A stretch of 64,000 bases of DNA from Candidatus Aenigmatarchaeota archaeon. GTDB lineage: Archaea > Aenigmatarchaeota > Aenigmatarchaeia > Aenigmatarchaeales > JACQIB01. Each line of letters opens with the position of its first letter. The stretch's first letter is position 1. The position numbers were made by a program, and so were the translations under genes. Location of the stretch: positions 32,001 through 96,000 of the forward strand of contig JACQIB010000001.1 of assembly GCA_016198755.1 (NCBI GenBank), in the 5' to 3' direction. Below the pieces are notes generated by a model, which saw only the letters and a list, made by a program, of their open reading frames with translations, did no database searches and was not told the origin of the DNA. This document shows positions 1-39,070 of this stretch, piece after piece.

Positions 1-31
1 TGCAGGTGTTCACTGATTAAAGGGGGACGTT

Positions 32-122
32 AGAAAGTGCAGGATAATGCGTGGTGGGTAATTCTTCCTATTTTTGATTTGATTAGTTAGAATTATCTAC
101 CCAAATCTTGGCTTTCCGTGAA
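32..122 (+). other. rRNA intron 1 (about 91 nt hairpin, relaxed BHB), near E. coli 23S position 2576
   Basis: Splits GGACGT/AGCTGGG. Long stem GAAAG/CTTTC, CAGGAT/ATCTTG, GGTGGGTAATTCT/AGAATTATCTACC. Bulges TTA (30-32) and AAA (121-123) flank ACG/CGT. Boundaries +/-1 nt. Confidence 0.8.
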
Positions 123-143
123 AGCTGGGTTCAGTACGTCGTG

Positions 144-508
144 ATCTGACAAGTGGGTAACGCGGGAGGAAAAGGTCTTCTAGTGAAAAATGACTGGAAA
201 ATGTTATCCAAAGATTTCACAAATCTCATGCCTCAGATGAACTATATAGCTTAAGCTTTAGCGCTAGCAATGACTATAGTATACCTGGCATGGAAAATAA
301 TAGATCAAGCTTATAGGGAAAATGAAGTGAACAAAAAGAAGTCACATCTGATTCCCATAAGAAAATTCTCGGGCTATGAATGAACCGTCCCAAAGCACCC
401 GGCAAAATGTGCGTTCGGAGTAGCTAATGAGCCTTGCTATGAGAATTTTTACAAGCTTGGTTTTACTTTTAAGAAGACCATCCTGCATTCCCATTTAACG
501 AACGATAG
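144..508 (+). other. rRNA intron 2 (365 nt) in the helix 93 loop, E. coli position about 2593-2594
   Basis: Removal restores ACGTCGTGAGACAG. BHB core GTCG(138-141)/CGAT(503-506) with bulges TGA and AGA. No ORF of 60 aa or more lies within it. Confidence 0.85.
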
Positions 509-574
509 AGACAGTACGGTTTATATCTTCTGAGGGTGCATAAGTGCCTGACCCGAAGGAGCGGTGAGTACGAA

Positions 575-605
575 ATGCTTACACTTAGCTGTGCGAGCAC
601 GCAAA
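575..605 (+). other. rRNA intron 3 (31 nt) inside the sarcin-ricin loop tetraloop
   Basis: Removal gives AGTAC-GAAA-GGAAC. Stem TGCT/AGCA, core TACG/CGCA (3 of 4 pairs), AAA bulges at 573-575 and 604-606. Confidence 0.75.
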
Positions 606-646
606 AGGAACGCCGCTTCGCGGCCTCTGGTTGACCAGTTGTCGTA

Positions 647-694
647 ACAGCTTTAGCTATGGCGTTAACACGCAGAGAGCTATTGCTGCGATAA
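647..694 (+). other. rRNA intron 4 (48 nt, canonical BHB) in the helix 96 loop
   Basis: GTT-GTCG-TAA-CAGC...GCTG-CGAT-AAA-GGC; cutting after the second base of each bulge gives TGTC-GTAA-GGCA, a GNRA hairpin. Confidence 0.85.
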
Positions 695-1048
695 AGGCAA
701 AGCTGGGCAGCTACGCTGTAGTCTTTAAGGCCTGAAGGCATCTAAGGCCGAAATGATCGGGGAAAAGAGGCATTGGCCACAGGCTAGATAACCTGTTTGA
801 TAGGAGCCGGGTGTAAGCACGAAGCTTCGGCGACGTGTTCAGCCTGGGCTTACTAATAGGCCATTAATTTTGCATAAAGCAAGTTAGCTTGCCAATAGAA
901 ATATTGGCTTGCGAAGCAAGCTTTTGCGAATGGTGTCCAGACCCCCTTAAGTTTCCTCTGTTGGCAGATTTTTGTTCTTTAACAATTTAGCGTTAGCTAT
1001 AAAATCTAAAACAAGAAGGCTTAAAACCTTCTGCTCCAATTCTTTCAC

Positions 1049-1744
1049 ATGCAAAACCCAAGGCTCTCAATAATAATGCCAGCCCATAATGAAGAGAGTG
1101 TTATAGCTGGGGTTATAGAGAAGTTTTGCCCAGCCCTTTCTCAGGCAGAAATTATTGTTGTTTGCAATGGGTGCACAGATAATACTTTTGCTGTTTCATC
1201 CAAACTAAAAGAGAAATACAAAAACTTGGTTGTGCTGGACTTTGGAAGGATTTTCAAGGGAGGGGCAATACTTGAGGGGTTTAAAGTTGCGCGCGGAGAT
1301 ATTGTTGGTTTTGTGGATTCTGACGGAGCCTTTGAGCCTTCTGATGTAATAAAGATTGTTGGAGGTATAAGGGAAGCTGGTGGGGCTATAGCAAGCAAGT
1401 GGACCGGGAAAGGATTTGATAGTCCATTCTCGCAAGAAAGGAAGTTCTCTGCACGCGTATGGAATTTTTTTGTTAGATTATTTTTAGGATTAAAACATCC
1501 AGATACACAGGCAGGTTGCAAGTTCTTTAAGAAAGAAGCTGTAGAAGCAATAGATAAAAATTTTTCAGCGCGCGGTTTTGCCTTTGATATAGAGCTGCTT
1601 TACAAGATTGAAAAAGCAGGGTTCAGAGTGAATGAGGTTTTCTGTGTACCAAAAGAAACAAAAGCAGGAATTTTCAGCCTAAAAAGCACGCCTAAAATGT
1701 TTCTGGATCTTCTGAAAGTCTGGTACAACTCCAAGTTTCATTAG
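1049..1744 (+). CDS. GT2 glycosyltransferase, dolichyl-phosphate hexose synthase-like
   Basis: IIMPAHNEE, GCTDNT, FVDSDG, DTQAGCK, FDIELL. Confidence 0.85.
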   Translation: MQNPRLSIIMPAHNEESVIAGVIEKFCPALSQAEIIVVCNGCTDNTFAVSSKLKEKYKNLVVLDFGRIFKGGAILEGFKVARGDIVGFVDSDGAFEPSDVIKIVGGIREAGGAIASKWTGKGFDSPFSQERKFSARVWNFFVRLFLGLKHPDTQAGCKFFKKEAVEAIDKNFSARGFAFDIELLYKIEKAGFRVNEVFCVPKETKAGIFSLKSTPKMFLDLLKVWYNSKFH

Positions 1745-3940
1745 GCCATAAAACACCAAGAACAGAAGCCCTAAAATAGACAGGATGTTCCCGAGAGTAT
1801 CGTAAATTGTATCAGAATAATAAAGCTTTACATGGCTCTGGGTTGGATAAATTATCATAAATGATGGTGAAGCCAAATAGACTTTATCCGCTCCTTGCAC
1901 ATGCCAGTTTGGATAATAGCTTATCTTGATTAACACAGGCTTTCCAATACAATCTGTATCAAACTCCAGCTCTTCCATGCTAAACTTTTCATTCTTTGTT
2001 TCACAGGTTCCAACAGCCTTTTTAGGTACAGAAACAATTTCTCTGTAGGCTTCTGTTTCATTCTTTCCATTTTCCTGTATTATAGTCTCGAATTTCTTGT
2101 CAGGTCCGGAGAGAACAACAATCGGTCTGTCCATATTATCTAGGTCCTTAAACCATTCGTAGGTAACTTTCTTCCAGTTTTTCCCGATATATCCAACAGG
2201 TTCATAGAGCTGCGGTTCAGTGTATTTGCCAGTATTGTTCAGCCTGAAAACTTCAAATTCATCAAACTCCTTTAGTGGTACAGCATCTGTTTTTCTGAAT
2301 TCCGTCTTTGTTTTATTTGAAGTAGCTACGAAATAATCTATATTAAAGAACTTCAAATACCGCGTGGCATTCTCAGCACTGTAATAGGAACAGCGCCATT
2401 TTGGTATTGGGCATGTTGGCCCTTCAGAATATGAAGCCTGCATATAGAACATATAGGGGCTTGTAAGAGCACCTTCTATAAACAACCCCTCAAGCGTGGA
2501 TTTTCCAGTGAAAAGTGGCATATTTTCCAGCATCCTTGGCGTTCCAAATTTTTCATGCGTTGAAGAATATTCATGTGCTGTACGTCCATATGGCAGGCTC
2601 TTTACAAAAGAAGTCATATTGCTCAGTGTTGGCCAGTATGCTTTTCCCTCATAACCTGAATAGTTCCAGTTTATCCAGCTCTGTATGAATGTTACATTTC
2701 CAGCAGTCCAGAGCACAATAAGTATAACACATAAAATAGCTCCTCCTTCTTTTAGCCCAAAGTTCATTTTTTTGTTTAAAGCAATACCAGCGACAGCAAT
2801 AACTATCATTGCAGCTATAACAGAATTATAATACTGCACTTTTATGATTGTGTGCATTAGTAGTGCAGTTGCAACAGCGCATGCACTGAAAATTGCACCA
2901 GTTTTGAAATCAAACCCAGAAACAATCTTTCCTATGACTATTGAAGAGAAAACAACAGCAAGAAGCTGGAAAATTGGAACAAATCTTATATCCACCAAAC
3001 CAAGAGGATTTGCAGCCAAATACAGAAGCAGTGGTATTATAGAAGCAACCCCAAGATATACAACTCTTTTATCTTTTCTGTAAAGCAGGAACGAGAAAGC
3101 AGCAAGAATTATAAATGGTATTAGTATTTTTGGCAGGACTTCTCCAACAGTTACATTGAAAACATAATCCAACGGAGTTCTCCATCCTAATTTTGCCATT
3201 GCAGGCACAAACCAAAATCCTACTAAAGAACCTCCCAGAACAAATACTTTTGAAATATATTTTGCATTTTCCTTTATTTTTACAAAGTCAGCAAGGAAAA
3301 CCAATGTTATAATGCCCGCGAACAATAAAGTGTAAATATGAGTCAGTCCAATACCAGCCAAAATTATACCGTTCCTTACCCAAGCCTTCTTTTCTGTTAT
3401 TCCATTATACAGCGAGCCAATATAGAGCAAAACCAGACCTATACTGATACTATAGGTAAACTCCCCTGCCAGTGTGGAAGGTATATTTCCTCCCCACATT
3501 GAGTTTGCTTCCATGAAAAGGAATGCAAGTGTTGAAGCAGCTCCTATAGCTGGTACAGGAAATTCAAATTTCATGTACCTAAGAGAAAAATAAGCTGCGA
3601 AAGGCAGGAAAGCAGTTCCAAGAACAGTTACAAGCTTGAAACCAGCATTCAATCCAACAAACAACCCAAAAAAGCTCATTAAAGCAAATGGAGTAGGAAA
3701 ATAATACTGGAACATTGGCATTCCAGCATACCACCAGTCTGTCCAGCCAATCAGCTTTCCATGAGGCAATAAATAATCATGCATATACTGCGCTGGTGTA
3801 ACATGGGAACCAGTGTCTCCCCCATTTGTTAAATTTTGGGAAAGCAAGAGTTCTGGCTTGAAAAAGCTGAAAATAAAAATTAGACAAGCTATCAATACCA
3901 CAGCATCTACGATTAGTTCCTTTTTCATTTCATTACCCAC
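1679..3940 (-). CDS. Multi-pass membrane protein, GT-C-like glycosyltransferase (PTPS-related membrane domain/YfhO-like)
   Basis: GGDTGSH, WYAGMPMFQYY, many TM segments, C-terminal KISYYPNWHV; convergent with the GT2 gene. Confidence 0.7.
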   Translation of the reverse strand: MGNEMKKELIVDAVVLIACLIFIFSFFKPELLLSQNLTNGGDTGSHVTPAQYMHDYLLPHGKLIGWTDWWYAGMPMFQYYFPTPFALMSFFGLFVGLNAGFKLVTVLGTAFLPFAAYFSLRYMKFEFPVPAIGAASTLAFLFMEANSMWGGNIPSTLAGEFTYSISIGLVLLYIGSLYNGITEKKAWVRNGIILAGIGLTHIYTLLFAGIITLVFLADFVKIKENAKYISKVFVLGGSLVGFWFVPAMAKLGWRTPLDYVFNVTVGEVLPKILIPFIILAAFSFLLYRKDKRVVYLGVASIIPLLLYLAANPLGLVDIRFVPIFQLLAVVFSSIVIGKIVSGFDFKTGAIFSACAVATALLMHTIIKVQYYNSVIAAMIVIAVAGIALNKKMNFGLKEGGAILCVILIVLWTAGNVTFIQSWINWNYSGYEGKAYWPTLSNMTSFVKSLPYGRTAHEYSSTHEKFGTPRMLENMPLFTGKSTLEGLFIEGALTSPYMFYMQASYSEGPTCPIPKWRCSYYSAENATRYLKFFNIDYFVATSNKTKTEFRKTDAVPLKEFDEFEVFRLNNTGKYTEPQLYEPVGYIGKNWKKVTYEWFKDLDNMDRPIVVLSGPDKKFETIIQENGKNETEAYREIVSVPKKAVGTCETKNEKFSMEELEFDTDCIGKPVLIKISYYPNWHVQGADKVYLASPSFMIIYPTQSHVKLYYSDTIYDTLGNILSILGLLFLVFYGLMKLGVVPDFQKIQKHFRRAF

Positions 3941-4515: not shown

Positions 4516-4611
4516 ATATGTAACACATTTGTATTATTTGTATATAAATGTAGCTTAGTTTATTAATCCAAATCCCTGCTGAATAGCAGAAGGTGAAACA
4601 AATGGCAATGG

Positions 4612-5382
4612 GTGGATTACAAAGACTCTGTACAGAAAGCTATAGATAGTATAAAATCTGATATACATACTTCCAAGGCTGAGCCGGATGATTTGTCAGA
4701 ACTTCTTTCAGTTGAAAATGCAGCATGGCCGGCTACGGAAGATGATAATGGTGCTATAGTAGCATCAGAAGAAAAATTCAGGCATAGGATAAAAATAGGC
4801 AGTATATTAAAAGCAGAATATACAGGAGAACCTATAACATGGGACGGTATACAATTAACAGAAGGCACAATTCTTGGAATGATAAGTTTTCAGATGTTGC
4901 AGATGCCCATAGACTTTCAAGATGTAATTAAAAAATCTGAACGCGGAGTTGAATGGGGAGAATTAATTTCAATGGGATTCCCAAAAGATTGGTATGAATT
5001 AACAGACGATGGTTTTCTCTATAAAACACATATACCAAATGGTAATGTTGGTTGTTTGGTTGGCGTTGGAGTTCTTCCTTCCATGCGCGGATTCGGTGTA
5101 GTAAATAATTTAATAGGAGGTGTGGTTTCTGACATGAAAAAATCAGGCTTGGAATGGGCAATTGGATATGGACGTGTTCCAGAATATGGAAAACACCCAG
5201 AAGTTCCCCTGCAGCAGTATGTTAAACGCAAACGTTCAGATGGTAAACCAGTCGATTACGGGCTGCGTTTTCATTATAATAACGGAGCGCATATAGTGTG
5301 CGGTATACCTCAATCTATGAGGCCAAAGGATGACTGGGAAAGCCTTGGTAACGGTGCACTAGTTGTGTACCAGTTGAAGTGA
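4612..5382 (+). CDS. GNAT-like acyltransferase
   Basis: VGVLPSMRGFGV acetyl-CoA motif A; GYGRVPEY, LRFHYNNGA. Confidence 0.65.
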   Translation: MDYKDSVQKAIDSIKSDIHTSKAEPDDLSELLSVENAAWPATEDDNGAIVASEEKFRHRIKIGSILKAEYTGEPITWDGIQLTEGTILGMISFQMLQMPIDFQDVIKKSERGVEWGELISMGFPKDWYELTDDGFLYKTHIPNGNVGCLVGVGVLPSMRGFGVVNNLIGGVVSDMKKSGLEWAIGYGRVPEYGKHPEVPLQQYVKRKRSDGKPVDYGLRFHYNNGAHIVCGIPQSMRPKDDWESLGNGALVVYQLK

Positions 5383-5386
5383 TGTT

Positions 5387-6082
5387 ATGGAGAAGTTCAA
5401 AATAACAAAAGTAAAAAACAATATATTCAAGATAGAAGAAATGTTATACAAAGAACATGCAAATCTATACCTTTTTATTTCTGACAACTTCTATCTTTTA
5501 GTGGATTCAGGAACAGGATTTTGGAATCTAAAGGAAAAAATATATAAAACTTTTGGAAACAACACAATTTTACTTATCAACACACATGGACATTATGATC
5601 ACATAGGAGGAAATAAACAATTCAGCTTTTCTGCAATACATGAAAATGACCTGAAATCTTTAACAAACCCAACAAAAGAAAATACGGTTTCTTTCAAATT
5701 CTCTAAATCTGATATGTTAACAAACAATAACGAGAGTATTAAATCCTTAAAATCAGCACCAAATATGATTTTACACGGAGGAGAAAAAATTGCGGTTGGT
5801 AAATTTATTTTCAAAATACTACACACGCCAGGACATTCACCCGGAAGCATATCTCTATATGATGAAAAAAACAAGACTTTAGTTTCTGGTGACATGCTCT
5901 ATAACGGTAAACTATATTATAATCTGCCAAAGTCTGATAAATTTCAATATATAGAATCCCTGAAATCCACAAAGAAGATGAAAGTCCAGACTTTATTAGC
6001 TGGACACAACGAAATTATTCTTGGAGAGGAAAACATCCAAAAACTTATGAATAAAGCCATATTCGAGTTAGAGGAGCACTGA
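5387..6082 (+). CDS. Metallo-beta-lactamase-fold hydrolase
   Basis: THGHYDHIGG, HTPGHSPG, SGD, AGH. Confidence 0.9.
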   Translation: MEKFKITKVKNNIFKIEEMLYKEHANLYLFISDNFYLLVDSGTGFWNLKEKIYKTFGNNTILLINTHGHYDHIGGNKQFSFSAIHENDLKSLTNPTKENTVSFKFSKSDMLTNNNESIKSLKSAPNMILHGGEKIAVGKFIFKILHTPGHSPGSISLYDEKNKTLVSGDMLYNGKLYYNLPKSDKFQYIESLKSTKKMKVQTLLAGHNEIILGEENIQKLMNKAIFELEEH

Positions 6083-10625: not shown

Positions 10626-13600
10626 GTGAAAAAAATGGGATATGGATGGGGAAAGGATTTGAAAAAGCCCGAGTTTACAAAAGTCTCGGATGTTATTTGG
10701 GAGATTCCAACAAGCTTTAAGAAAGGAATGAACGTTCCAGCAAGAATATACGCAACAAAGCAGATTCTGGATCAGATGGACCTGATGGTTTTTGACCAGA
10801 TAACAAATGTAGCAACGCTTCCAGGAATTTTGAAATATGCTTACTGTATGCCGGATGGACACAGCGGCTACGGATTTCCAATAGGCGGAGTTGCAGCAAT
10901 GGATGCTGTTGAAGGTGTGATATCACCTGGAGGGATCGGATTTGATATCAACTGCCTCCACCCAGACTCAAAAATTTCTCTTTCCAATGGGACTTGGAAA
11001 AAGGTTTCTGATTTAGAGCATGAATGGGAAAATAAAAGAGTAAAGTTTTTTAATATAGAAAACAAAGCAGTTGAAAATGCCACACCCATTATGTTCATGA
11101 AACGTATGGAGGATAATAGTATTTTTGAAATAGTAACAGAAAGCGGAAGAAAAATAAATGTTACGGCAGAACACCCCATTCTAACTCAAAGAGGGTTTAT
11201 CAGAGCCGATAATCTGAAAGAAACAGATAATGTTTACACTCAGCCATTCAGCGGTGTAGAATACGAGAAGCCATCCGACGAGGTCATAGTTTCCTATGTT
11301 GACATAGAAAGAATTTTGGATGTCATAGGAATAACAAACTCTGGAAACGCAAGAGTTCAAATTTTAAATACACTTAAAAGAGTTGGTTTAAATGAAATAC
11401 GGTACAATTCCACGGCCCTGCCAGCTATTTTGAAAATAATGGGATTTGTTTTTGGAGATGGTTGCATATCTATATTGTCAAAAATAAAAAAAGGGATGAC
11501 AGCCTTTTATGGGAAAAAAGAAGATTTAGAAACTATAAAGGAAGACATAAAAAGTTTAGGGTTTAAAGCACAAAATATTTTTTCAAGGCAACGAAAACAT
11601 AAAATAGAAACTTATTATGGAACAAGCGAATTCGATTTTACAGAGCACTCTCTTTTAAAAAAATCCACAGGATTTGCAGCACTTCTCATAGCACTGGGTA
11701 CGCCACATGGAATTAAAACCTCTCAACCTTACAGGATTCCAAAATGGATAATGAAAGCACCTCTATGGCAGAAAAGACTATTTCTCGCAGCATTTTTTGG
11801 AGCAGAGCTTTCCTCTCCAAAAACTATTAATGCATATAATTTTTATATGCATCAGTTAAATATGAACAAACTAGAAATTCTAAAAGAAAATGGCGAAGAA
11901 TTTTTAAATGATATACGTCTACTGCTTTCTGAATTCTGTATAACATCTACATATCCCACTATAGTAGAAGGTAACCAGTATGTAGGCAAAAAAGGAAAAA
12001 CTATAGGTTTAAGAATTTGTATACATTCAAATCCGGACAATTTGGTCAAGCTCTATGAAAATGTGGGATACGAATATAATAAAGAAAAGTCAAATTTGGC
12101 CTGCCTTGCAGCAAATTACACACGCCTAAAGGAATCCATAAAATCACATAGGAGTGACATACGTACTTTGGCTCTTGAAATGTATAAATCAGGCGAAAGA
12201 CCGCGGGATATTAGAGCCGCTTTACTACAAGAAAACATATCAAAAAATTTTATAAACCATTCTATATGGCCTGATAGGAGCAATAATGTAAGGTTGCCTG
12301 CCGCATCAATTACTTTTGCTTTTGATGAATTCAAGAAAAATCTTATAGGAGATGGCATTGTTATCGACAAAATAAAAAAGATCGAACAACACCCCTATAA
12401 AGGATTTGTATATGATATTACAATTAACAATGAAAACCACAATTTTATAGCCAATAATATTATTTCTCACAATTGTGGAATGAGACTTGTTACTACAAAC
12501 CTTACTCTGAAGGATGTACAGCCTAAGCTGAAAGAACTTGTGGATAAGTTGTTCCAGAAGGTTCCAGCGGGAGTTGGTTCAGAAGGTTTTCTAAAGCTTA
12601 CAAAAGATGAGTTCAGGAAAGTTGTTGAGGAAGGGGCAGAGTGGTGCGTGAAAAAAGGATATGGATGGGAGGAAGATTTGCAGAGGACAGAGCTGTATGG
12701 GAGATGTAAGGATGCTGATGCAAAGAAAATCAGCCAGAAATCTGTGGATAGGGGGTATAGCCAGATAGGAACTTTAGGTTCTGGAAATCATTATTTGGAA
12801 ATACAGCATGTAAAACCAGAGAACATTATTGACAAGGCTACAGCAAAGGCATTCGGAATTTTCCCTGATCAGGTTGTAATAATGTTTCACTGCGGTTCCC
12901 GCGGGTTTGGCCATCAGGTTGCAACAGATTATCTTAACACTTTCCTTTCTGTAATGGAAAGCAAATATAAAATAAAGATTTTAGACAGGGAACTTGCATG
13001 TGCTCCGTTTAATTCTCCGGAAGGACAGGATTACTTTACTGCAATGAAATGCGGAATAAATATGAGCTTTGCAAATAGACAGGTTATTCTGCACAGGATT
13101 CGTGAAGTCTTTTCAGATGTTTTCAAACAGCCAGCAGATAAAATGGGTTTACAAATGGTTTATGATGTTGCCCACAACAGAGGTTCTTTGGAAAAGCATT
13201 TAGTGGATGGTAGCTGGAGGGAAGTTATTGTACACAGAAAGGGGGCTACTGCGTGCTTTGGTCCCAACAGAACTGAAGTGCCAAAAATCTGGCAATCCAC
13301 TGGTCAGCCCGTAATTATTGGTGGTTCAATGGAAACAGGTTCATACCTTTTAGTTGGTACAGATAAGGCAGCAGAAACATTTTTTTCAACTGCCCACGGA
13401 GCAGGCAGAACAATGAGCAGGACAAAAGCAAAGGGATTATGGAGAGGGGAACAACTTGTGAAAGATATGCAGAAGAAGGGAATTTACGTGCGCACAGTAT
13501 CTTTCCCAGGATTAGCTGAAGAGGCTGGTGGAGCTTACAAAGATATAGATTCTGTTATAAATGCTGCAGATTTGGCTGGTATTTCAAAGAAAGTTACAAA

Positions 13601-13631
13601 ACTTGTTCCAATAGGAAACGTAAAAGGTTAG
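10626..13631 (+). CDS. rtcB: RNA-splicing ligase RtcB with intein
   Basis: MPDGHSGYGFPIGG, GFDIN/CG, GTLGSGNHYLE, HCGSRG, HRKGAT, STAHGAGR, YKDID. Confidence 0.97.
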   Translation: MKKMGYGWGKDLKKPEFTKVSDVIWEIPTSFKKGMNVPARIYATKQILDQMDLMVFDQITNVATLPGILKYAYCMPDGHSGYGFPIGGVAAMDAVEGVISPGGIGFDINCLHPDSKISLSNGTWKKVSDLEHEWENKRVKFFNIENKAVENATPIMFMKRMEDNSIFEIVTESGRKINVTAEHPILTQRGFIRADNLKETDNVYTQPFSGVEYEKPSDEVIVSYVDIERILDVIGITNSGNARVQILNTLKRVGLNEIRYNSTALPAILKIMGFVFGDGCISILSKIKKGMTAFYGKKEDLETIKEDIKSLGFKAQNIFSRQRKHKIETYYGTSEFDFTEHSLLKKSTGFAALLIALGTPHGIKTSQPYRIPKWIMKAPLWQKRLFLAAFFGAELSSPKTINAYNFYMHQLNMNKLEILKENGEEFLNDIRLLLSEFCITSTYPTIVEGNQYVGKKGKTIGLRICIHSNPDNLVKLYENVGYEYNKEKSNLACLAANYTRLKESIKSHRSDIRTLALEMYKSGERPRDIRAALLQENISKNFINHSIWPDRSNNVRLPAASITFAFDEFKKNLIGDGIVIDKIKKIEQHPYKGFVYDITINNENHNFIANNIISHNCGMRLVTTNLTLKDVQPKLKELVDKLFQKVPAGVGSEGFLKLTKDEFRKVVEEGAEWCVKKGYGWEEDLQRTELYGRCKDADAKKISQKSVDRGYSQIGTLGSGNHYLEIQHVKPENIIDKATAKAFGIFPDQVVIMFHCGSRGFGHQVATDYLNTFLSVMESKYKIKILDRELACAPFNSPEGQDYFTAMKCGINMSFANRQVILHRIREVFSDVFKQPADKMGLQMVYDVAHNRGSLEKHLVDGSWREVIVHRKGATACFGPNRTEVPKIWQSTGQPVIIGGSMETGSYLLVGTDKAAETFFSTAHGAGRTMSRTKAKGLWRGEQLVKDMQKKGIYVRTVSFPGLAEEAGGAYKDIDSVINAADLAGISKKVTKLVPIGNVKG
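10953..12473 (+). mobile_element. Intein (507 aa) with LAGLIDADG homing endonuclease
   Basis: Starts CLHPD after GFDIN, ends SHN before C; block B TAEHP; MGFVFGDG and LAAFFGAE; more AT-rich than the exteins. Confidence 0.95.
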
Positions 13632-15221: not shown

Positions 15222-16109
15222 ATGCAAAAAACTCCAGTTGTTTTAATAACAGGATATTTAGGTTCAGGAAAAACTACTTTACTGCGCAAAGTAATAGAAG
15301 AGATGAAAGGAAGGAAAATAGCAGTTTTAATGAACGAATTTGGTTCCATTGGGATAGACGGTAGGGTTTTGAAAGGGAAAGCCGTGGAAATGGTTGAGCT
15401 GAGCGGGGGTTGTGTTTGCTGCTCTTTAACAGGTGAGTTTGAGGCTGCAGTAAAGGAAATACTTGAGAAAATAAAGCCAGAGTATATTTTTGTTGAAACC
15501 ACTGGATTAGCAGAGCCCGATACAATAGTTGGTCTCTTGCAGGATACTATAGCTGATGTGCGCATAGACAGTATAATTTGCATAGCAGATGCAGATTCTC
15601 TCTTGCGTTTTCCAACCCTTGGACATACAGGACGGGTCCAGATTGAACTGGCTGATATTATTCTGCTGAACAAGATAGATTTAGTTCCTTCAGAAAAATT
15701 GCTGGAAATAGAGCATATGCTTAGGGAACTTAATCCAAAAGCAGAAATAACAAGAACGAACCACTGTTCAGTTTCCATTGTTTACCTATTGGGTTTGTAC
15801 ACCCCGAAAGAAATTGAAACCCATGAAAAAGAAGAGCATATACAAGAGGAGTTTTTTTCCTTCAAAAGCGCTGCAGTTTTCAATAGGGAAAAGTTTGAAA
15901 GCTTTTCTTCAGGCCTCCCAGAGAATATTTTCCGTGCAAAAGGGTTTATTGTTTTTCCAGAAGGTGGATTCCTGTTCAATTTTGTTGCAGGAAGGTTTGA
16001 ACTTGAGCCTTTCCCAACAAAGGCCACGGAGCTTGTTTTTATAGGCGGATGCGCCAATTCAGTTAAAGAAAGTCTGTTTGATAAACTGAAAGAATGTGAA
16101 GAAAAATGA
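15222..16109 (+). CDS. COG0523/CobW-family metallochaperone GTPase
   Basis: GYLGSGKTT, NEFG, GCVCC, ETTG, NKID, RAKG. Confidence 0.92.
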   Translation: MQKTPVVLITGYLGSGKTTLLRKVIEEMKGRKIAVLMNEFGSIGIDGRVLKGKAVEMVELSGGCVCCSLTGEFEAAVKEILEKIKPEYIFVETTGLAEPDTIVGLLQDTIADVRIDSIICIADADSLLRFPTLGHTGRVQIELADIILLNKIDLVPSEKLLEIEHMLRELNPKAEITRTNHCSVSIVYLLGLYTPKEIETHEKEEHIQEEFFSFKSAAVFNREKFESFSSGLPENIFRAKGFIVFPEGGFLFNFVAGRFELEPFPTKATELVFIGGCANSVKESLFDKLKECEEK

Positions 16110-16540
16110 GCTACAAATTTCTAGAAGATATTGCAATAGCTGATGTGGCCTTTGAGGCCGACGGAAAAACAATTGAAAATATGTTTGAACAGGCTGGGCT
16201 TGCTTTGGAAAATACAATGGTTAAGGAACTGGAAACCGTAAAAACAACTGATAAGAGGAAAATAACAGCAGAGGGAAAGGATACGGAAACATTACTGCAC
16301 AATTTCTTGGAGGAACTGGTTTACATAAAGGACGCTGAACTTTTGCTTTTTTCCAAGTTTTCAGGCACAAAAATAGCTGAAAAAAATGGAAAGTGGTTCA
16401 TGGAAACCACTGGATTGGGCGAGCCTTTAAACCAAAAGAAACATGAGCTTTTAGTGGATGTAAAAGCAGTGAGCTGGCATAAGTTTTCTGTATCAAAGGT
16501 TAGAGGGGGCTTCAAATCAACAGTAATTCTGGATATTTAA
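16106..16540 (+). CDS. Archease
   Basis: IADVAFEA, DVKAVSWH, C-terminal LDI. Confidence 0.92.
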   Translation: MSYKFLEDIAIADVAFEADGKTIENMFEQAGLALENTMVKELETVKTTDKRKITAEGKDTETLLHNFLEELVYIKDAELLLFSKFSGTKIAEKNGKWFMETTGLGEPLNQKKHELLVDVKAVSWHKFSVSKVRGGFKSTVILDI

Positions 16541-38762: not shown

Positions 38763-39070
38763 GTGTGTTGGGGTTAGCCCGCCTTTTGTTCGCCTGCCCG
38801 GTTTCCCGGGCGCGCGGCGCGGCAGCATTTGTCTAAGCAGCCTACCCGCTGCTCTTTATTCATTGCAGCCTACTTGGCCTTGCACCTTGCTGGTTTTGCG
38901 TTCCAGAGACATACTTCACATTTGTTCATCAGGTCCCTTTTTGCGCTTCCTGTCAGTCTCCCAACAGCCTTTTACAAGGCAGCATTTTTCTGGTGGGCGG
39001 AGCTTCCTCCCCGCTAGCCTCCCCCCGAAAGGATCAGCTGAGCAGGGGCAACTGCCTCCCCAACTCACAC
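38763..39070 (-). ncRNA. rnpB: Archaeal RNase P RNA
   Basis: Minus strand GAGGAAGCTCCGCCCAC and GAACAAAAGGCGGGCTA; complementary termini GTGTGAGTTGGG/CCCAACACAC; GC-rich. Confidence 0.92.

Follow-up and report, generated by a model that had tools for sequence, protein, structure and literature searches.

Probable BHB introns crowd the 3′ part of the single 23S rRNA gene found in an Aenigmatarchaeota genome

The DNA analysed here, a stretch of 64,000 nt referred to as the window, opens inside a 23S rRNA gene. This is the sole large subunit (LSU) gene found in the 0.89 Mb genome and, as the only one, it must be functional. The gene starts upstream of the window (G000:C5:27827), and when this upstream remainder was inspected the four insertions in the window were found to belong to a set of eight. 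Together the eight occupy 2007 of the 5050 nt of the gene, leaving a mature 23S rRNA of 3043 nt once all are removed. Coordinates of the four were set by alignment to relatives combined with the register of the bulge-helix-bulge (BHB) motif, and they are listed below as introns, the reading that we consider very probable.

Positions 1–31, + strand: 23S exon, the tail of a 93-nt exon that starts upstream of the window; agrees with the relatives' ..GGUGUUCACUGAUUAAAGGGGGACGUU
Positions 32–122, + strand: intron 1, 91 nt, in the peptidyl-transferase ring
Positions 123–143, + strand: 23S exon of 21 nt (..AGCUGGGUUCAGUACGUCGUG), peptidyl-transferase centre strand and 5′ half of helix 93
Positions 144–508, + strand: intron 2, 365 nt, in the helix 93 tetraloop
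Positions 225–297, + strand: module 1 within intron 2, a conserved structured domain
Positions 371–434, + strand: module 2 within intron 2, from a 13-sequence alignment
Positions 509–574, + strand: 23S exon of 66 nt, from the 3′ half of helix 93 to the 5′ half of the sarcin-ricin loop; the Rfam alignment starts at 541
Positions 575–605, + strand: intron 3, 31 nt, inside the sarcin-ricin loop
Positions 606–646, + strand: 23S exon of 41 nt, between introns 3 and 4
Positions 647–694, + strand: intron 4, 48 nt, in the terminal loop of helix 97
Positions 695–876, + strand: 23S 3′-terminal exon; the Rfam LSU_rRNA_archaea alignment reaches 862, model position 2973 of 2987
Positions 10626–13631, + strand: RtcB RNA ligase gene with an intein (Pfam RtcB, Intein_splicing)
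Positions 16106–16540, + strand: archease gene (Pfam Archease)

We take the site of intron 1 to correspond roughly to E. coli 2576/2577, and that of intron 2 presumably lies near 2597/2598. The Rfam archaeal LSU model aligns to positions 541–862 of the window only, and there intron 3 appears as an insert of 36 versus 5 positions and intron 4 as one of 52 versus 6. An initial annotation of this DNA had proposed the four insertion lengths and the three short exons listed above, and alignment to relatives together with the BHB register bore out both.

The BHB motif consists of two 3-nt bulges on opposite strands with a 4-bp helix between them, with splice sites after the second bulge base. Cutting at this base was said in the initial annotation to restore the expected exon length; it in fact gives the exact exon sequence of the relatives at all four insertions, the removal of each giving back the sequence of intron-less relatives. 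The joined products (slashes mark the joints) are ..GACGUU/AGCUGGG for intron 1, ..CGUCGUG/AGACAG for intron 2 and AGUACGAA/AGGAAC for intron 3, while removal of intron 4 leaves the 4-nt hairpin loop seen in relatives. The proposed 4-bp core with 3-nt bulges is fully paired in introns 2 and 4 and reaches three of four pairs in introns 1 and 3. At intron 1 the core pairs 26–29 with 117–120 (one G.G mismatch), with bulges at 30–32 and 121–123 and an inner helix of 33–38 with 111–116. Introns 2 and 4 share the same GUCG/CGAU core, formed by 138–141 with 503–506 and by 641–644 with 689–692, respectively; the bulges are UGA (142–144) and AGA (507–509) at intron 2, which has a long but imperfect inner helix (145–157 with 490–502), and UAA and AAA at intron 4. 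The core of intron 3, UACG (569–572) with CGCA (600–603), has one A.C mismatch, AAA in both bulges and an inner helix of 576–580 with 595–599. Intron 4 alone has the canonical hBHBh′ form, with inner (648–651 with 685–688) and outer (638–640 with 696–698) helices. The outer exon–exon helix h measures 0–1 bp in six of the seven junctions tested and 3 bp in intron 4, the intron–intron helix h′ being present with 1–15 contiguous bp, hence the junctions other than that of intron 4 are relaxed BHB motifs, not canonical hBHBh′. Broad-specificity endonucleases have been reported to accept relaxed BHB forms (PMC5829648).

The motif alone proves nothing, because an unconstrained all-pairs scan of the gene returned 1988 BHB-like matches, the 60 best of which included no real junction. 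The weight lies in the coincidence of the motif with junctions defined by alignment. Taking as a null all same-length registers in the gene, those scoring at least the observed core plus inner helix numbered 2 of 4889 for intron 1, 36 of 4615 for intron 2, 7 of 4949 for intron 3 and 4 of 4932 for intron 4, and 1 of 4124, 5 of 4688 and 4 of 4918 for the upstream introns A, C and D. Two competing registers were rejected. Register 27/118 for intron 1 has a 4/4 core (all G.U or G-C) but alters three conserved exon bases, and an RNA contig contains window positions 28–31. A canonical hBHBh′ for intron A at L001 2756/3590 disagrees with the joint seen in RNA, 2744 to 3601 (shiftable by 1), which fits register 2745/3601 with its 15-bp inner helix. 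Minimum free energy (MFE) folds gave modest z-scores (−1.6 to −2.8); the fold of intron 1 reproduces the core, 5′ bulge and inner helix, that of intron 4 is compatible with the BHB with a shortened core, and the core of intron 3 is absent from its fold.

Transcript evidence came from assembled contigs of public metatranscriptomes, not from reads, and DNA may be present in RNA libraries. In RNA run X10, one 188-nt contig (depth 112) is made up of L001 5194–5222, 5515–5550, 5613–5705 and 5797–5818, followed by GACAGTAC, and thereby joins exons across introns C (292 nt), D (62 nt) and 1 (91 nt). The 21-nt exon appears within it as a 22-nt piece. RNA run X16, from another study, shows the same joints, including that across intron 1 (L001 5705 to 5797), and in both studies the contigs pass from L001 5818 into the exon after intron 2 by the same 8-nt loose end only. 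Run X10 also joins across intron A (856 nt), and all of the RNA joints agree with the BHB registers. Contigs of X10 and X16 gave no cover over the interiors of introns A, B and 2, nor over L001 6233–6401 (introns 3 and 4 with their exons), where absence of cover is not evidence; to judge from their sequence, introns 3 and 4 would also be removed by splicing. In DNA run X5, the joined form of intron 1 occurs in two contigs and a D-less form at a loose end, hence intron-less relatives exist, and the RNA contigs joining across C, D and 1 could derive from such a relative, despite a 93-nt piece of the X10 contig that has 0 mismatches to this genome where sampled relatives are 88–95% identical.

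Continuity of the RNA bears on whether the inserts are intervening sequences, excised without religation so that 23S fragments are held together by base pairing. Fragmented rRNAs of this origin are known in bacteria and provide a precedent, and no joined RNA was seen for introns 3 and 4, in the region without RNA cover. The contigs from RNA libraries nevertheless run unbroken over the joints of A, C, D and 1 and on into the exon that follows intron 2, RtcB and archease are encoded, and we know of no precedent for free 21- and 41-nt fragments in the catalytic core. We consider this explanation very improbable.

A misassembled gene, whether a strain chimera or misjoined contigs, is less probable still, even though the genome is a metagenome bin of six contigs and, in the run that is its likely source, the Logan contigs are interrupted at several points within the gene. 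Four DNA runs hold 97–99% of the sampled words of the gene, and overlapping contigs of DNA run X1, possibly the source sample, tile the whole intron-bearing gene with 0 mismatches and show none of the RNA joints. Genomes of relatives, assembled independently, also have homologous introns at the same sites.

Comparison across these relatives showed that 0–7 or more insertions are carried at recurrent sites, a count that is an underestimate. The unusual density emphasised in the initial annotation holds for the gene, with its eight introns, but it is a trait of the whole order and is not peculiar to this genome. Intron 1 is absent from 17 of 18 relatives, in which the exon is contiguous, and the remaining one (L015) has another intron at or beside the site. 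By contrast, the helix 93 (H93) site of intron 2 is occupied in all 18 relatives in which both anchors were found, by inserts of 151–396 nt. The H93 family comprises 26 unique introns of 51–660 nt, all with a 4/4 core and bulges of 3 nt; on its intron strand, the core reads CGAC in 21 introns, CGAU in four and CGGC in one. The inner helix covaries across the family: pairs 1–4 are canonical in 25–26 of the 26 introns, with 1, 3, 5 and 6 canonical pair types, respectively, and the helix in this genome is the weakest among them. At the sarcin-ricin loop (SRL), removal of intron 3 gives AGUACGAAAGGAAC, a loop present in 17 compared rows (including two duplicates, L011 and L030). L015, L048 and L062 have introns at this site in which all four core pairs form (UACG/CGUA) and the inner helices covary, and L069 has a long one, so that core and bulges are constant in the family and inner helices differ. 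Intron 4 has a homologue with similar ends in L016 (45 nt) and is found in only these two of the compared genomes, the other relatives having the 4-nt loop. In these alignments, same-site introns elsewhere retain the BHB through compensatory changes.

Retention of some inserts in the mature rRNA as expansion segments would apply above all to intron 4 and possibly to intron 2, both of which occupy terminal hairpin loops (helices 97 and 93) where extra helices are tolerable. The universal presence of intron 2 in the order, with conserved structure, is as expected of an expansion segment, and intron 4 lacks RNA cover. A retained helix hardly explains, however, why 3-nt bulges and a 4-bp core are invariant in 26 of 26 H93 inserts of such different lengths, and RNA contigs from two studies run from GUGA directly into GACAGUAC; lacking intron 1 and reading past intron 2, they are contrary to retention. 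The restricted occurrence of intron 4, its full hBHBh′ and the 4-nt loop left by its removal also argue against retention, which we judge improbable, if somewhat less so than excision without religation.

Most of these introns are sporadic among relatives and look like mobile or once-mobile elements, and the sporadic ones look like short derivatives of longer introns with LAGLIDADG-like frames. Such frames occur in some introns of the lineage. One of 263 codons lies within intron A, where LAGLIDADG-like motifs were seen by eye; its sole Pfam match, to LAGLIDADG_3, is sub-threshold (E 0.0033; 18.1 bits, the cut-off being 22.5), and a search against the PDB gave no match.

Frames of this kind would also suit self-splicing group I or group II introns, or their degenerate remains. 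Group I introns are expected to end in G, whereas H93 introns end in A, U or G, and a ribozyme core would not fit into inserts of 31–91 nt, nor into the shortest H93 introns (51 nt). With the Intron_gpI and group II covariance models, which are general and not subgroup-specific, the eight introns gave no match, either at the gathering threshold or with E relaxed to 10. In Woese-, Pace- and Micrarchaeota, IA3 group I introns have been described at LSU/2593, which lies within a few bases of the intron 2 site (Nawrocki et al. 2018, PMC6125680), yet we hold a ribozyme origin to be extremely unlikely, on a par with misassembly.

The four insertions are thus very probably archaeal BHB introns of the 23S rRNA, four of eight in the gene. 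The exact junctions, the BHB at the same sites in relatives, the joined RNA contigs and the lack of group I or II matches support the protein-spliced BHB type assigned in the initial annotation.

Enzymes for such splicing are encoded in the genome. RtcB (Pfam RtcB, 540 bits in two stretches, with Intein_splicing at residues 117–616) and archease (Pfam Archease, 122.8 bits) both lie in the window, as had been claimed. Two adjacent EndA genes, on another contig, each encode N- and C-terminal domains. Of their products, one has the Nanoarchaeum catalytic chain 3iey_A as its closest match; the other is nearest to the EndA-like half of 5x89, with a further match to the structural chain 3iey_B. We infer the acting enzymes, the circularisation and the order of splicing as follows. 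Before splicing, each intron would be preceded by four exon bases that pair with four bases near its 3′ end, giving a short helix flanked by two 3-nt bulges, with the intron-internal helix stacking on this core. An endonuclease composed of both EndA products, a catalytic subunit and a structural paralogue (heterotetramer type), would cut after the second bulge base. RtcB, aided by archease, would then join the exons and probably circularise the introns. Ligation would restore the peptidyl-transferase ring, helix 93, the sarcin-ricin loop and the loop of helix 97.

What is new is the H93 intron, which is fixed across the order and carries a conserved, covarying structured RNA domain. Module 1 comprises a lower stem, internal loop, upper stem, K-turn-like asymmetric loop and apical hairpin. 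Across 16 sequences, 93% of cells are paired versus 18–41% when the alignment is slid, and compensatory changes occur in 10 of 16 pairs, values reached by 0 of 500 shuffles. A covariance model of module 1 (R1) found a match in 12 of the 26 genomes from the order, a single one in each and always in the H93 intron, and none in 125 genomes elsewhere in the class. Module 2 has a closing stem, in which all four pairs show compensatory changes (13 sequences), K-turn-like RAUGA/AUGA strands and two conserved unpaired tracts (ACCGYCCC and GGAGUAGCU); its interior is conserved in sequence with no pairing predicted. Rfam gave no match to intron 2, and at E up to 10 over window positions 1–1000 only noise fell within introns.

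Archaeal H/ACA guide RNAs are hairpins that combine an internal-loop pocket, a K-turn in the upper stem, an ACA box placed 14–16 nt beyond the pocket and bipartite complementarity to an rRNA uridine. In module 1, covariation backs the hairpin, internal loop and K-turn-like loop, an ACA was found by eye at about the right distance in approximately 5 of 16 sequences, and Cbf5-like, Nop10 and L7Ae genes are present in the genome. When module 1 was examined as an H/ACA guide by scanning the LSU loci of 12 genomes for bipartite targets, no site emerged consistently; the sole recurrent partial match was the exon just after the intron, in two genomes. The archaeal pre-tRNA-Trp BHB intron contains a C/D box guide RNA and, as a BHB intron with a K-turn-containing structured RNA, may offer an analogy for the H93 modules. 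Unlike that intron, the modules yielded no C or D boxes, and no target complementarity in the LSU of 12 genomes. Fixation in an order-level clade and one or two conserved covarying K-turn-like domains unique within genomes are the basis for a speculative reading, which we think has a small but appreciable chance of being right: the H93 intron may be a domesticated element instead of a selfish insert. Once excised by EndA and circularised by RtcB, it could persist as an L7Ae-bound RNP. This RNP might help to assemble or modify the peptidyl-transferase centre, serving either as a guide-like RNA or, in cis, as a chaperone that controls when helix 93 folds.

Crenarchaeal BHB introns in 23S and 16S rRNA genes are also known from Desulfurococcus, Pyrobaculum, Thermoproteus and Aeropyrum. 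The introns found here resemble crenarchaeal ones, for which we draw in part on a study of Thermoproteales 16S introns (Jay & Inskeep 2015, PMC4496867), in their highly conserved sites, BHB core at the junction and sporadic distribution, in that some have LAGLIDADG frames and others are ORF-less derivatives, and in that removal is attributed to the tRNA splicing endonuclease. They differ in that the host is a mesophilic groundwater DPANN archaeon as opposed to a thermophile, in the eight introns per gene with exons of 21–41 nt and sites in the sarcin-ricin and helix 93 loops, and in the one intron that is order-wide and holds a conserved structured RNA. Introns in the same gene of the same kind of organism, DPANN and other uncultured archaea, are described by Nawrocki, Jones & Eddy (2018, PMC6125680), who note, for their Figure 1, that BHB introns co-occur with group I introns, and whose table has one Aenigmarchaeota entry. 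In the parts of that study drawn on here, group I introns are characterised and BHB introns figure only as co-occurring, whereas the eight introns here have no group I match. Beyond this passing mention, no literature on BHB rRNA introns in Aenigmatarchaeota or DPANN was found, subscription journals lying outside the coverage of the search. Insertions in the rRNA genes of CPR bacteria, many with LAGLIDADG genes and removed from transcripts (Tsurumaki et al. 2024, PMC11270868), likewise crowd the rRNA genes of ultrasmall groundwater organisms with reduced genomes, but they are bacterial and, as described there, often group I- or II-like or of unknown mechanism, in contrast to the archaeal protein-dependent BHB pathway here. 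The introns are therefore of a known kind, in a new and little-studied lineage, at new sites and at high density.

With these results, rRNA genes rich in introns are no longer confined to thermophilic Crenarchaeota but reach Aenigmatarchaeota that are mesophilic and live in groundwater, and relaxed BHB motifs of natural origin become available as substrates. Where mini-introns interrupt universally conserved tracts, among them the 530 loop of the 16S rRNA to which primers are directed, amplicon surveys can miss these organisms and rRNA annotation can fail; here, Rfam recovered just part of the 3′ end of the gene. The order-wide structured intron in helix 93 is a concrete case for asking whether archaeal rRNA introns gain function. 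To make one functional 23S rRNA, an organism with this tiny DPANN genome would need at least eight protein-catalysed cut-and-join events, and the 16S would call for more. Several of the events would fall within the peptidyl-transferase centre and the sarcin-ricin loop, with exons down to 21 nt, and RtcB must itself first undergo protein splicing. Eight such events would make EndA, RtcB and archease indispensable for ribosome biogenesis in this lineage.

The 23S rRNA gene is the single LSU rRNA gene found in this 0.89 Mb DPANN genome of 6 contigs (window, G000:C5:32001-96000), and the runs holding it are groundwater metagenomes. It starts at C5:27827 and its 3′ end occupies window 1-876; since Rfam alignment places window 541-862 at positions 2724-2973 of the archaeal LSU model, the gene spans about 5050 nt vs the 2987 positions of the model. 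To place the insertions, the gene was aligned by blastn with the shortest LSU genes from relatives, and anchors were matched across 20 loci (window position equals position in L001, the 23S locus, minus 5674). In the tRNA-derived bulge-helix-bulge (BHB) topology, a 4-bp helix forms between the exon bases just 5′ of one 3-nt bulge and the intron bases just 5′ of another, with cleavage following the second base of each bulge.

Probable introns of the 23S gene, with BHB features where scored
Intron A, L001 2746-3601, 856 nt, upstream of the window, BHB register present
Intron B, L001 about 4576-4837, 262 nt, upstream of the window, BHB register present
Intron C, L001 5225-5516, 292 nt, upstream of the window, BHB register present; site presumably 2449/2450, peptidyl-transferase centre
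Intron D, L001 5551-5612, 62 nt, upstream of the window, BHB register present
Intron #1, window 32-122, 91 nt, from comparison with relatives; core 3/4, inner helix 6 bp, outer helix 0; site taken to be near E. coli 2576/2577, peptidyl-transferase ring
Intron #2, window 144-508, 365 nt, from comparison with relatives; core 4/4, inner helix long and imperfect, outer helix 1 bp; site taken to be near E. coli 2597/2598, helix 93 (H93) tetraloop
Intron #3, window 575-605, 31 nt, from comparison with relatives; core 3/4, inner helix 5 bp, outer helix 0; site taken to be near E. coli 2661/2662, sarcin-ricin loop (SRL)
Intron #4, window 647-694, 48 nt, from comparison with relatives; core 4/4, inner helix 4 bp, outer helix 3 bp; site in the helix 97 loop

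The initial annotation had read the four window inserts as BHB-type introns of 91, 365, 31 and 48 nt separated by exons of 21, 66 and 41 nt, and blastn and anchor alignment reproduced these lengths exactly. Its claim that excision restores the expected exon length also held, and all four junctions give the sequence of intron-less relatives: removing #1 yields GACGUU/AGCUGGG (17 of 18 relatives are contiguous at this site), #2 yields CGUCGUG/AGACAG, #3 yields AGUACGAA/AGGAAC, the SRL of every relative compared, and #4 leaves a 4-nt hairpin loop. Inspection of the upstream remainder of the gene added insertions A-D. Together, the eight introns make up 2007 of 5050 nt, leaving a computed mature RNA of 3043 nt with exons of 1245, 974, 387, 34, 93, 21, 66, 41 and 182 nt. 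The observation of four inserts is confirmed and their interpretation as introns is supported.

The 4-bp core drawn for each of the four is fully paired in #2 and #4 but only three-quarters paired in #1 and #3, and the motifs are relaxed BHB forms. An unconstrained scan of the 23S gene returned 1988 BHB-like pairs, so a BHB match by itself carries little weight. At the junctions fixed by alignment, however, same-length registers that were equal or better numbered 2 of 4889 (#1), 36 of 4615 (#2), 7 of 4949 (#3) and 4 of 4932 (#4). For #1, MFE folding returned the core together with the 5′ bulge and the inner helix; for #3 it returned the inner helix, and for #4 most of the motif.

Evidence for splicing came from contigs, not reads, assembled from two RNA runs and two DNA runs and aligned to the 23S gene; these cover A, C, D, #1 and the #2 site on the RNA side, with no contig over #3 or #4. 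A 188-nt contig of RNA run X10 (depth 112) consists of L001 5194-5222, 5515-5550, 5613-5705 (0 mismatches) and 5797-5818, its coordinates summing exactly with no additional letters between pieces, and ends with the loose letters GACAGTAC, the start of the exon 3′ of #2. In this one contig, exons are therefore joined across three introns (C, D, #1), and the #2 site is passed without its intron. Intron A was also joined across in X10, at the register with a 15-bp inner helix. The joints at C, D and #1 and the loose end recur in RNA run X16, from another study, at 4 mismatches, hence this contig derives from a relative. Contigs of DNA run X1, probably the source run, cover the intron-bearing gene end to end without a mismatch, and the RNA joints are absent from them. 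RNA libraries may contain DNA, and in DNA run X5 the exons flanking #1 are also joined and a loose end lacks D, which relatives without those introns would be expected to give. The #2 site is the strongest point of the RNA evidence, since intron #2 is present in the DNA of every genome of the order.

The #2 site carried an insert of 151-396 nt in 18 of 18 relatives that yielded both anchors. Of 371 genomes of the phylum, 28 showed the 3′ junction pattern of the H93 intron, 19 of them in the order of this genome, which itself escapes the pattern through AGA in its second bulge. Intron-less helix 93 sequence was present in 50 of 371 genomes, with only one in the order, on the second LSU-bearing contig (G039:C25) of a 2 Mb bin (loci L010 and L027). 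This bin carries two different LSU types, one with canonical archaeal exon motifs and the intron-less helix 93, and the second LSU is probably foreign, through bin contamination. On these counts the H93 intron is fixed throughout the order but scattered in the rest of the class.

A set of 26 unique H93 introns, 51-660 nt long, was compared; it draws on this order, on other Aenigmatarchaeota and on two bins labelled Micrarchaeota. In all 26 the core was 4/4, the bulges were UGA or CGA and, second, AAA, AUA or AGA, and inner-helix pairs 1 to 4 were canonical in 25-26 of 26; pair 1 was invariant, with 3, 5 and 6 canonical pair types at pairs 2, 3 and 4. Two conserved modules lie within intron #2:

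Window 225-297, module 1, a 71-position domain with three helices
Window 371-434, module 2, a covarying closing stem with invariant unpaired tracts

Module 1 pairing holds in 93% of cells vs 18-41% with partners slid (16 sequences), with compensatory changes in 10 of 16 pairs, and none of 500 shuffles reached the observed values. Its covariance model matched 12 of 26 genomes of the order and 0 of 125 from other orders of the class, exactly once per genome and always within the H93 intron. Both modules contain K-turn-like strand pairs (a 3-nt bulge and GA facing GA, judged by eye against the K-turn consensus), and L7Ae, Nop10 and a Cbf5-like gene are encoded in the genome. A search for H/ACA-style targets over the LSU loci of 12 genomes found no consistent target.

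By a rough chain count, which runs low, relatives have between 0 and 7 or more insertions, and the sites recur; insertion density is a lineage trait, and this genome ranks towards the upper end. The SRL is interrupted in 4 of 26 archaeal loci of a wider sample. Homologues of #3 with the same ends occur in L015, L048, L062 and L069, including a ~220-nt intron with a LAGLIDADG-like remnant (L015) and mini-introns with 4/4 cores whose inner helices differ yet are complementary (L048, L062). A homologue of #4 in L016 has 45 nt and similar ends, and L015 carries another intron, 212 nt long, with a LAGLIDADG-like remnant at or one base beside the #1 site. Other recurrent sites lie near spliced positions 652, 950, 1261, 1920, 2072, 2230 and 2430, with further mini-introns (L008, L009, L013, L048) downstream of helix 97, within the conserved CUGAAGGCAUCUAAG tract near the 23S 3′ end. 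Mini-introns D (L001 5584-5593) and #4 (window 654-663) have the 10-mer TAGCTATGSC in common, which is found twice in L001 vs 0.04 expected and five times genome-wide, and the longer AGCUUUAGCUAUGGC of #4 matches the module 1 apical hairpin in H93 introns of relatives. These matches hint at a shared origin or binding site of the mini-introns. Intron A contains a 309-codon open frame (L001 2813-3742) with two LAGLIDADG-like motifs, extending ~140 nt beyond the 3′ splice site into the exon; no confident family match was found for it and database support is weak.

The spliced SRL (window 567-574 plus 606-611) reads AGUACGAAAGGAAC in this genome and all Aenigmatarchaeota relatives compared, with a GAAA tetraloop vs the near-universal GAGA, which the Micrarchaeota-labelled L082 retains. 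In the exon 5′ of #1, ACGUUAGC stands in place of the ACGUGAGC of most archaea. Two further RNA genes carry inserts:

L084 (G000:C2) 1501-3126, minus strand, 16S rRNA gene, unlinked on another contig
Window 38763-39068, minus strand, archaeal RNase P RNA, full length, 112 bits

The 16S gene has 1626 nt vs a 1478-position model, and the part up to model position 720 contains three inserts, of about 29, 61 and 31 nt. The 31-nt insert (L084 2576-2606; BHB core 4/4, outer helix 3 bp) lies inside the universally conserved 530-loop tract, between GUGCCA and GCCGCCGCGGUAA, and would disrupt common 515F-type primer sites. RNase P RNA has two inserts, one of 27 nt within an early hairpin and one of 43 nt close to the 3′ end.

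Both EndA domains are present in each of two neighbouring genes on contig C1. The first product (178 aa) is closest to the Nanoarchaeum catalytic chain 3iey_A, with the aligned EH.KW stretch kept, and the second (173 aa) to the EndA-like half of 5x89, a Methanopyrus fusion construct, also matching the structural chain 3iey_B. Judged by these matches, the pair fits the heterotetrameric type, with putative catalytic and structural subunits; this type is reported to accept non-canonical motifs (PMC5829648). The ligation factors expected in the window, RtcB and archease, were both located:

Window 10626-13631, RtcB gene, with an intein (Intein_splicing) of about 500 residues at residues 117-616
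Window 16106-16540, archease gene

Owing to the intein, the RNA-splicing ligase itself needs protein splicing.

BHB introns in crenarchaeal rRNA genes have long been known. Among Archaea, rRNA introns are stated to be most numerous in the Thermoproteales (Jay & Inskeep 2015, PMC4496867), and BHB introns are noted alongside group I introns in the LSU genes of uncultured archaea, DPANN among them (Nawrocki et al. 2018, PMC6125680). Our literature search, with subscription journals mostly outside it, found no description, for Aenigmatarchaeota, of this intron load, of BHB introns in the SRL or helix 93, or of the conserved intron domain.
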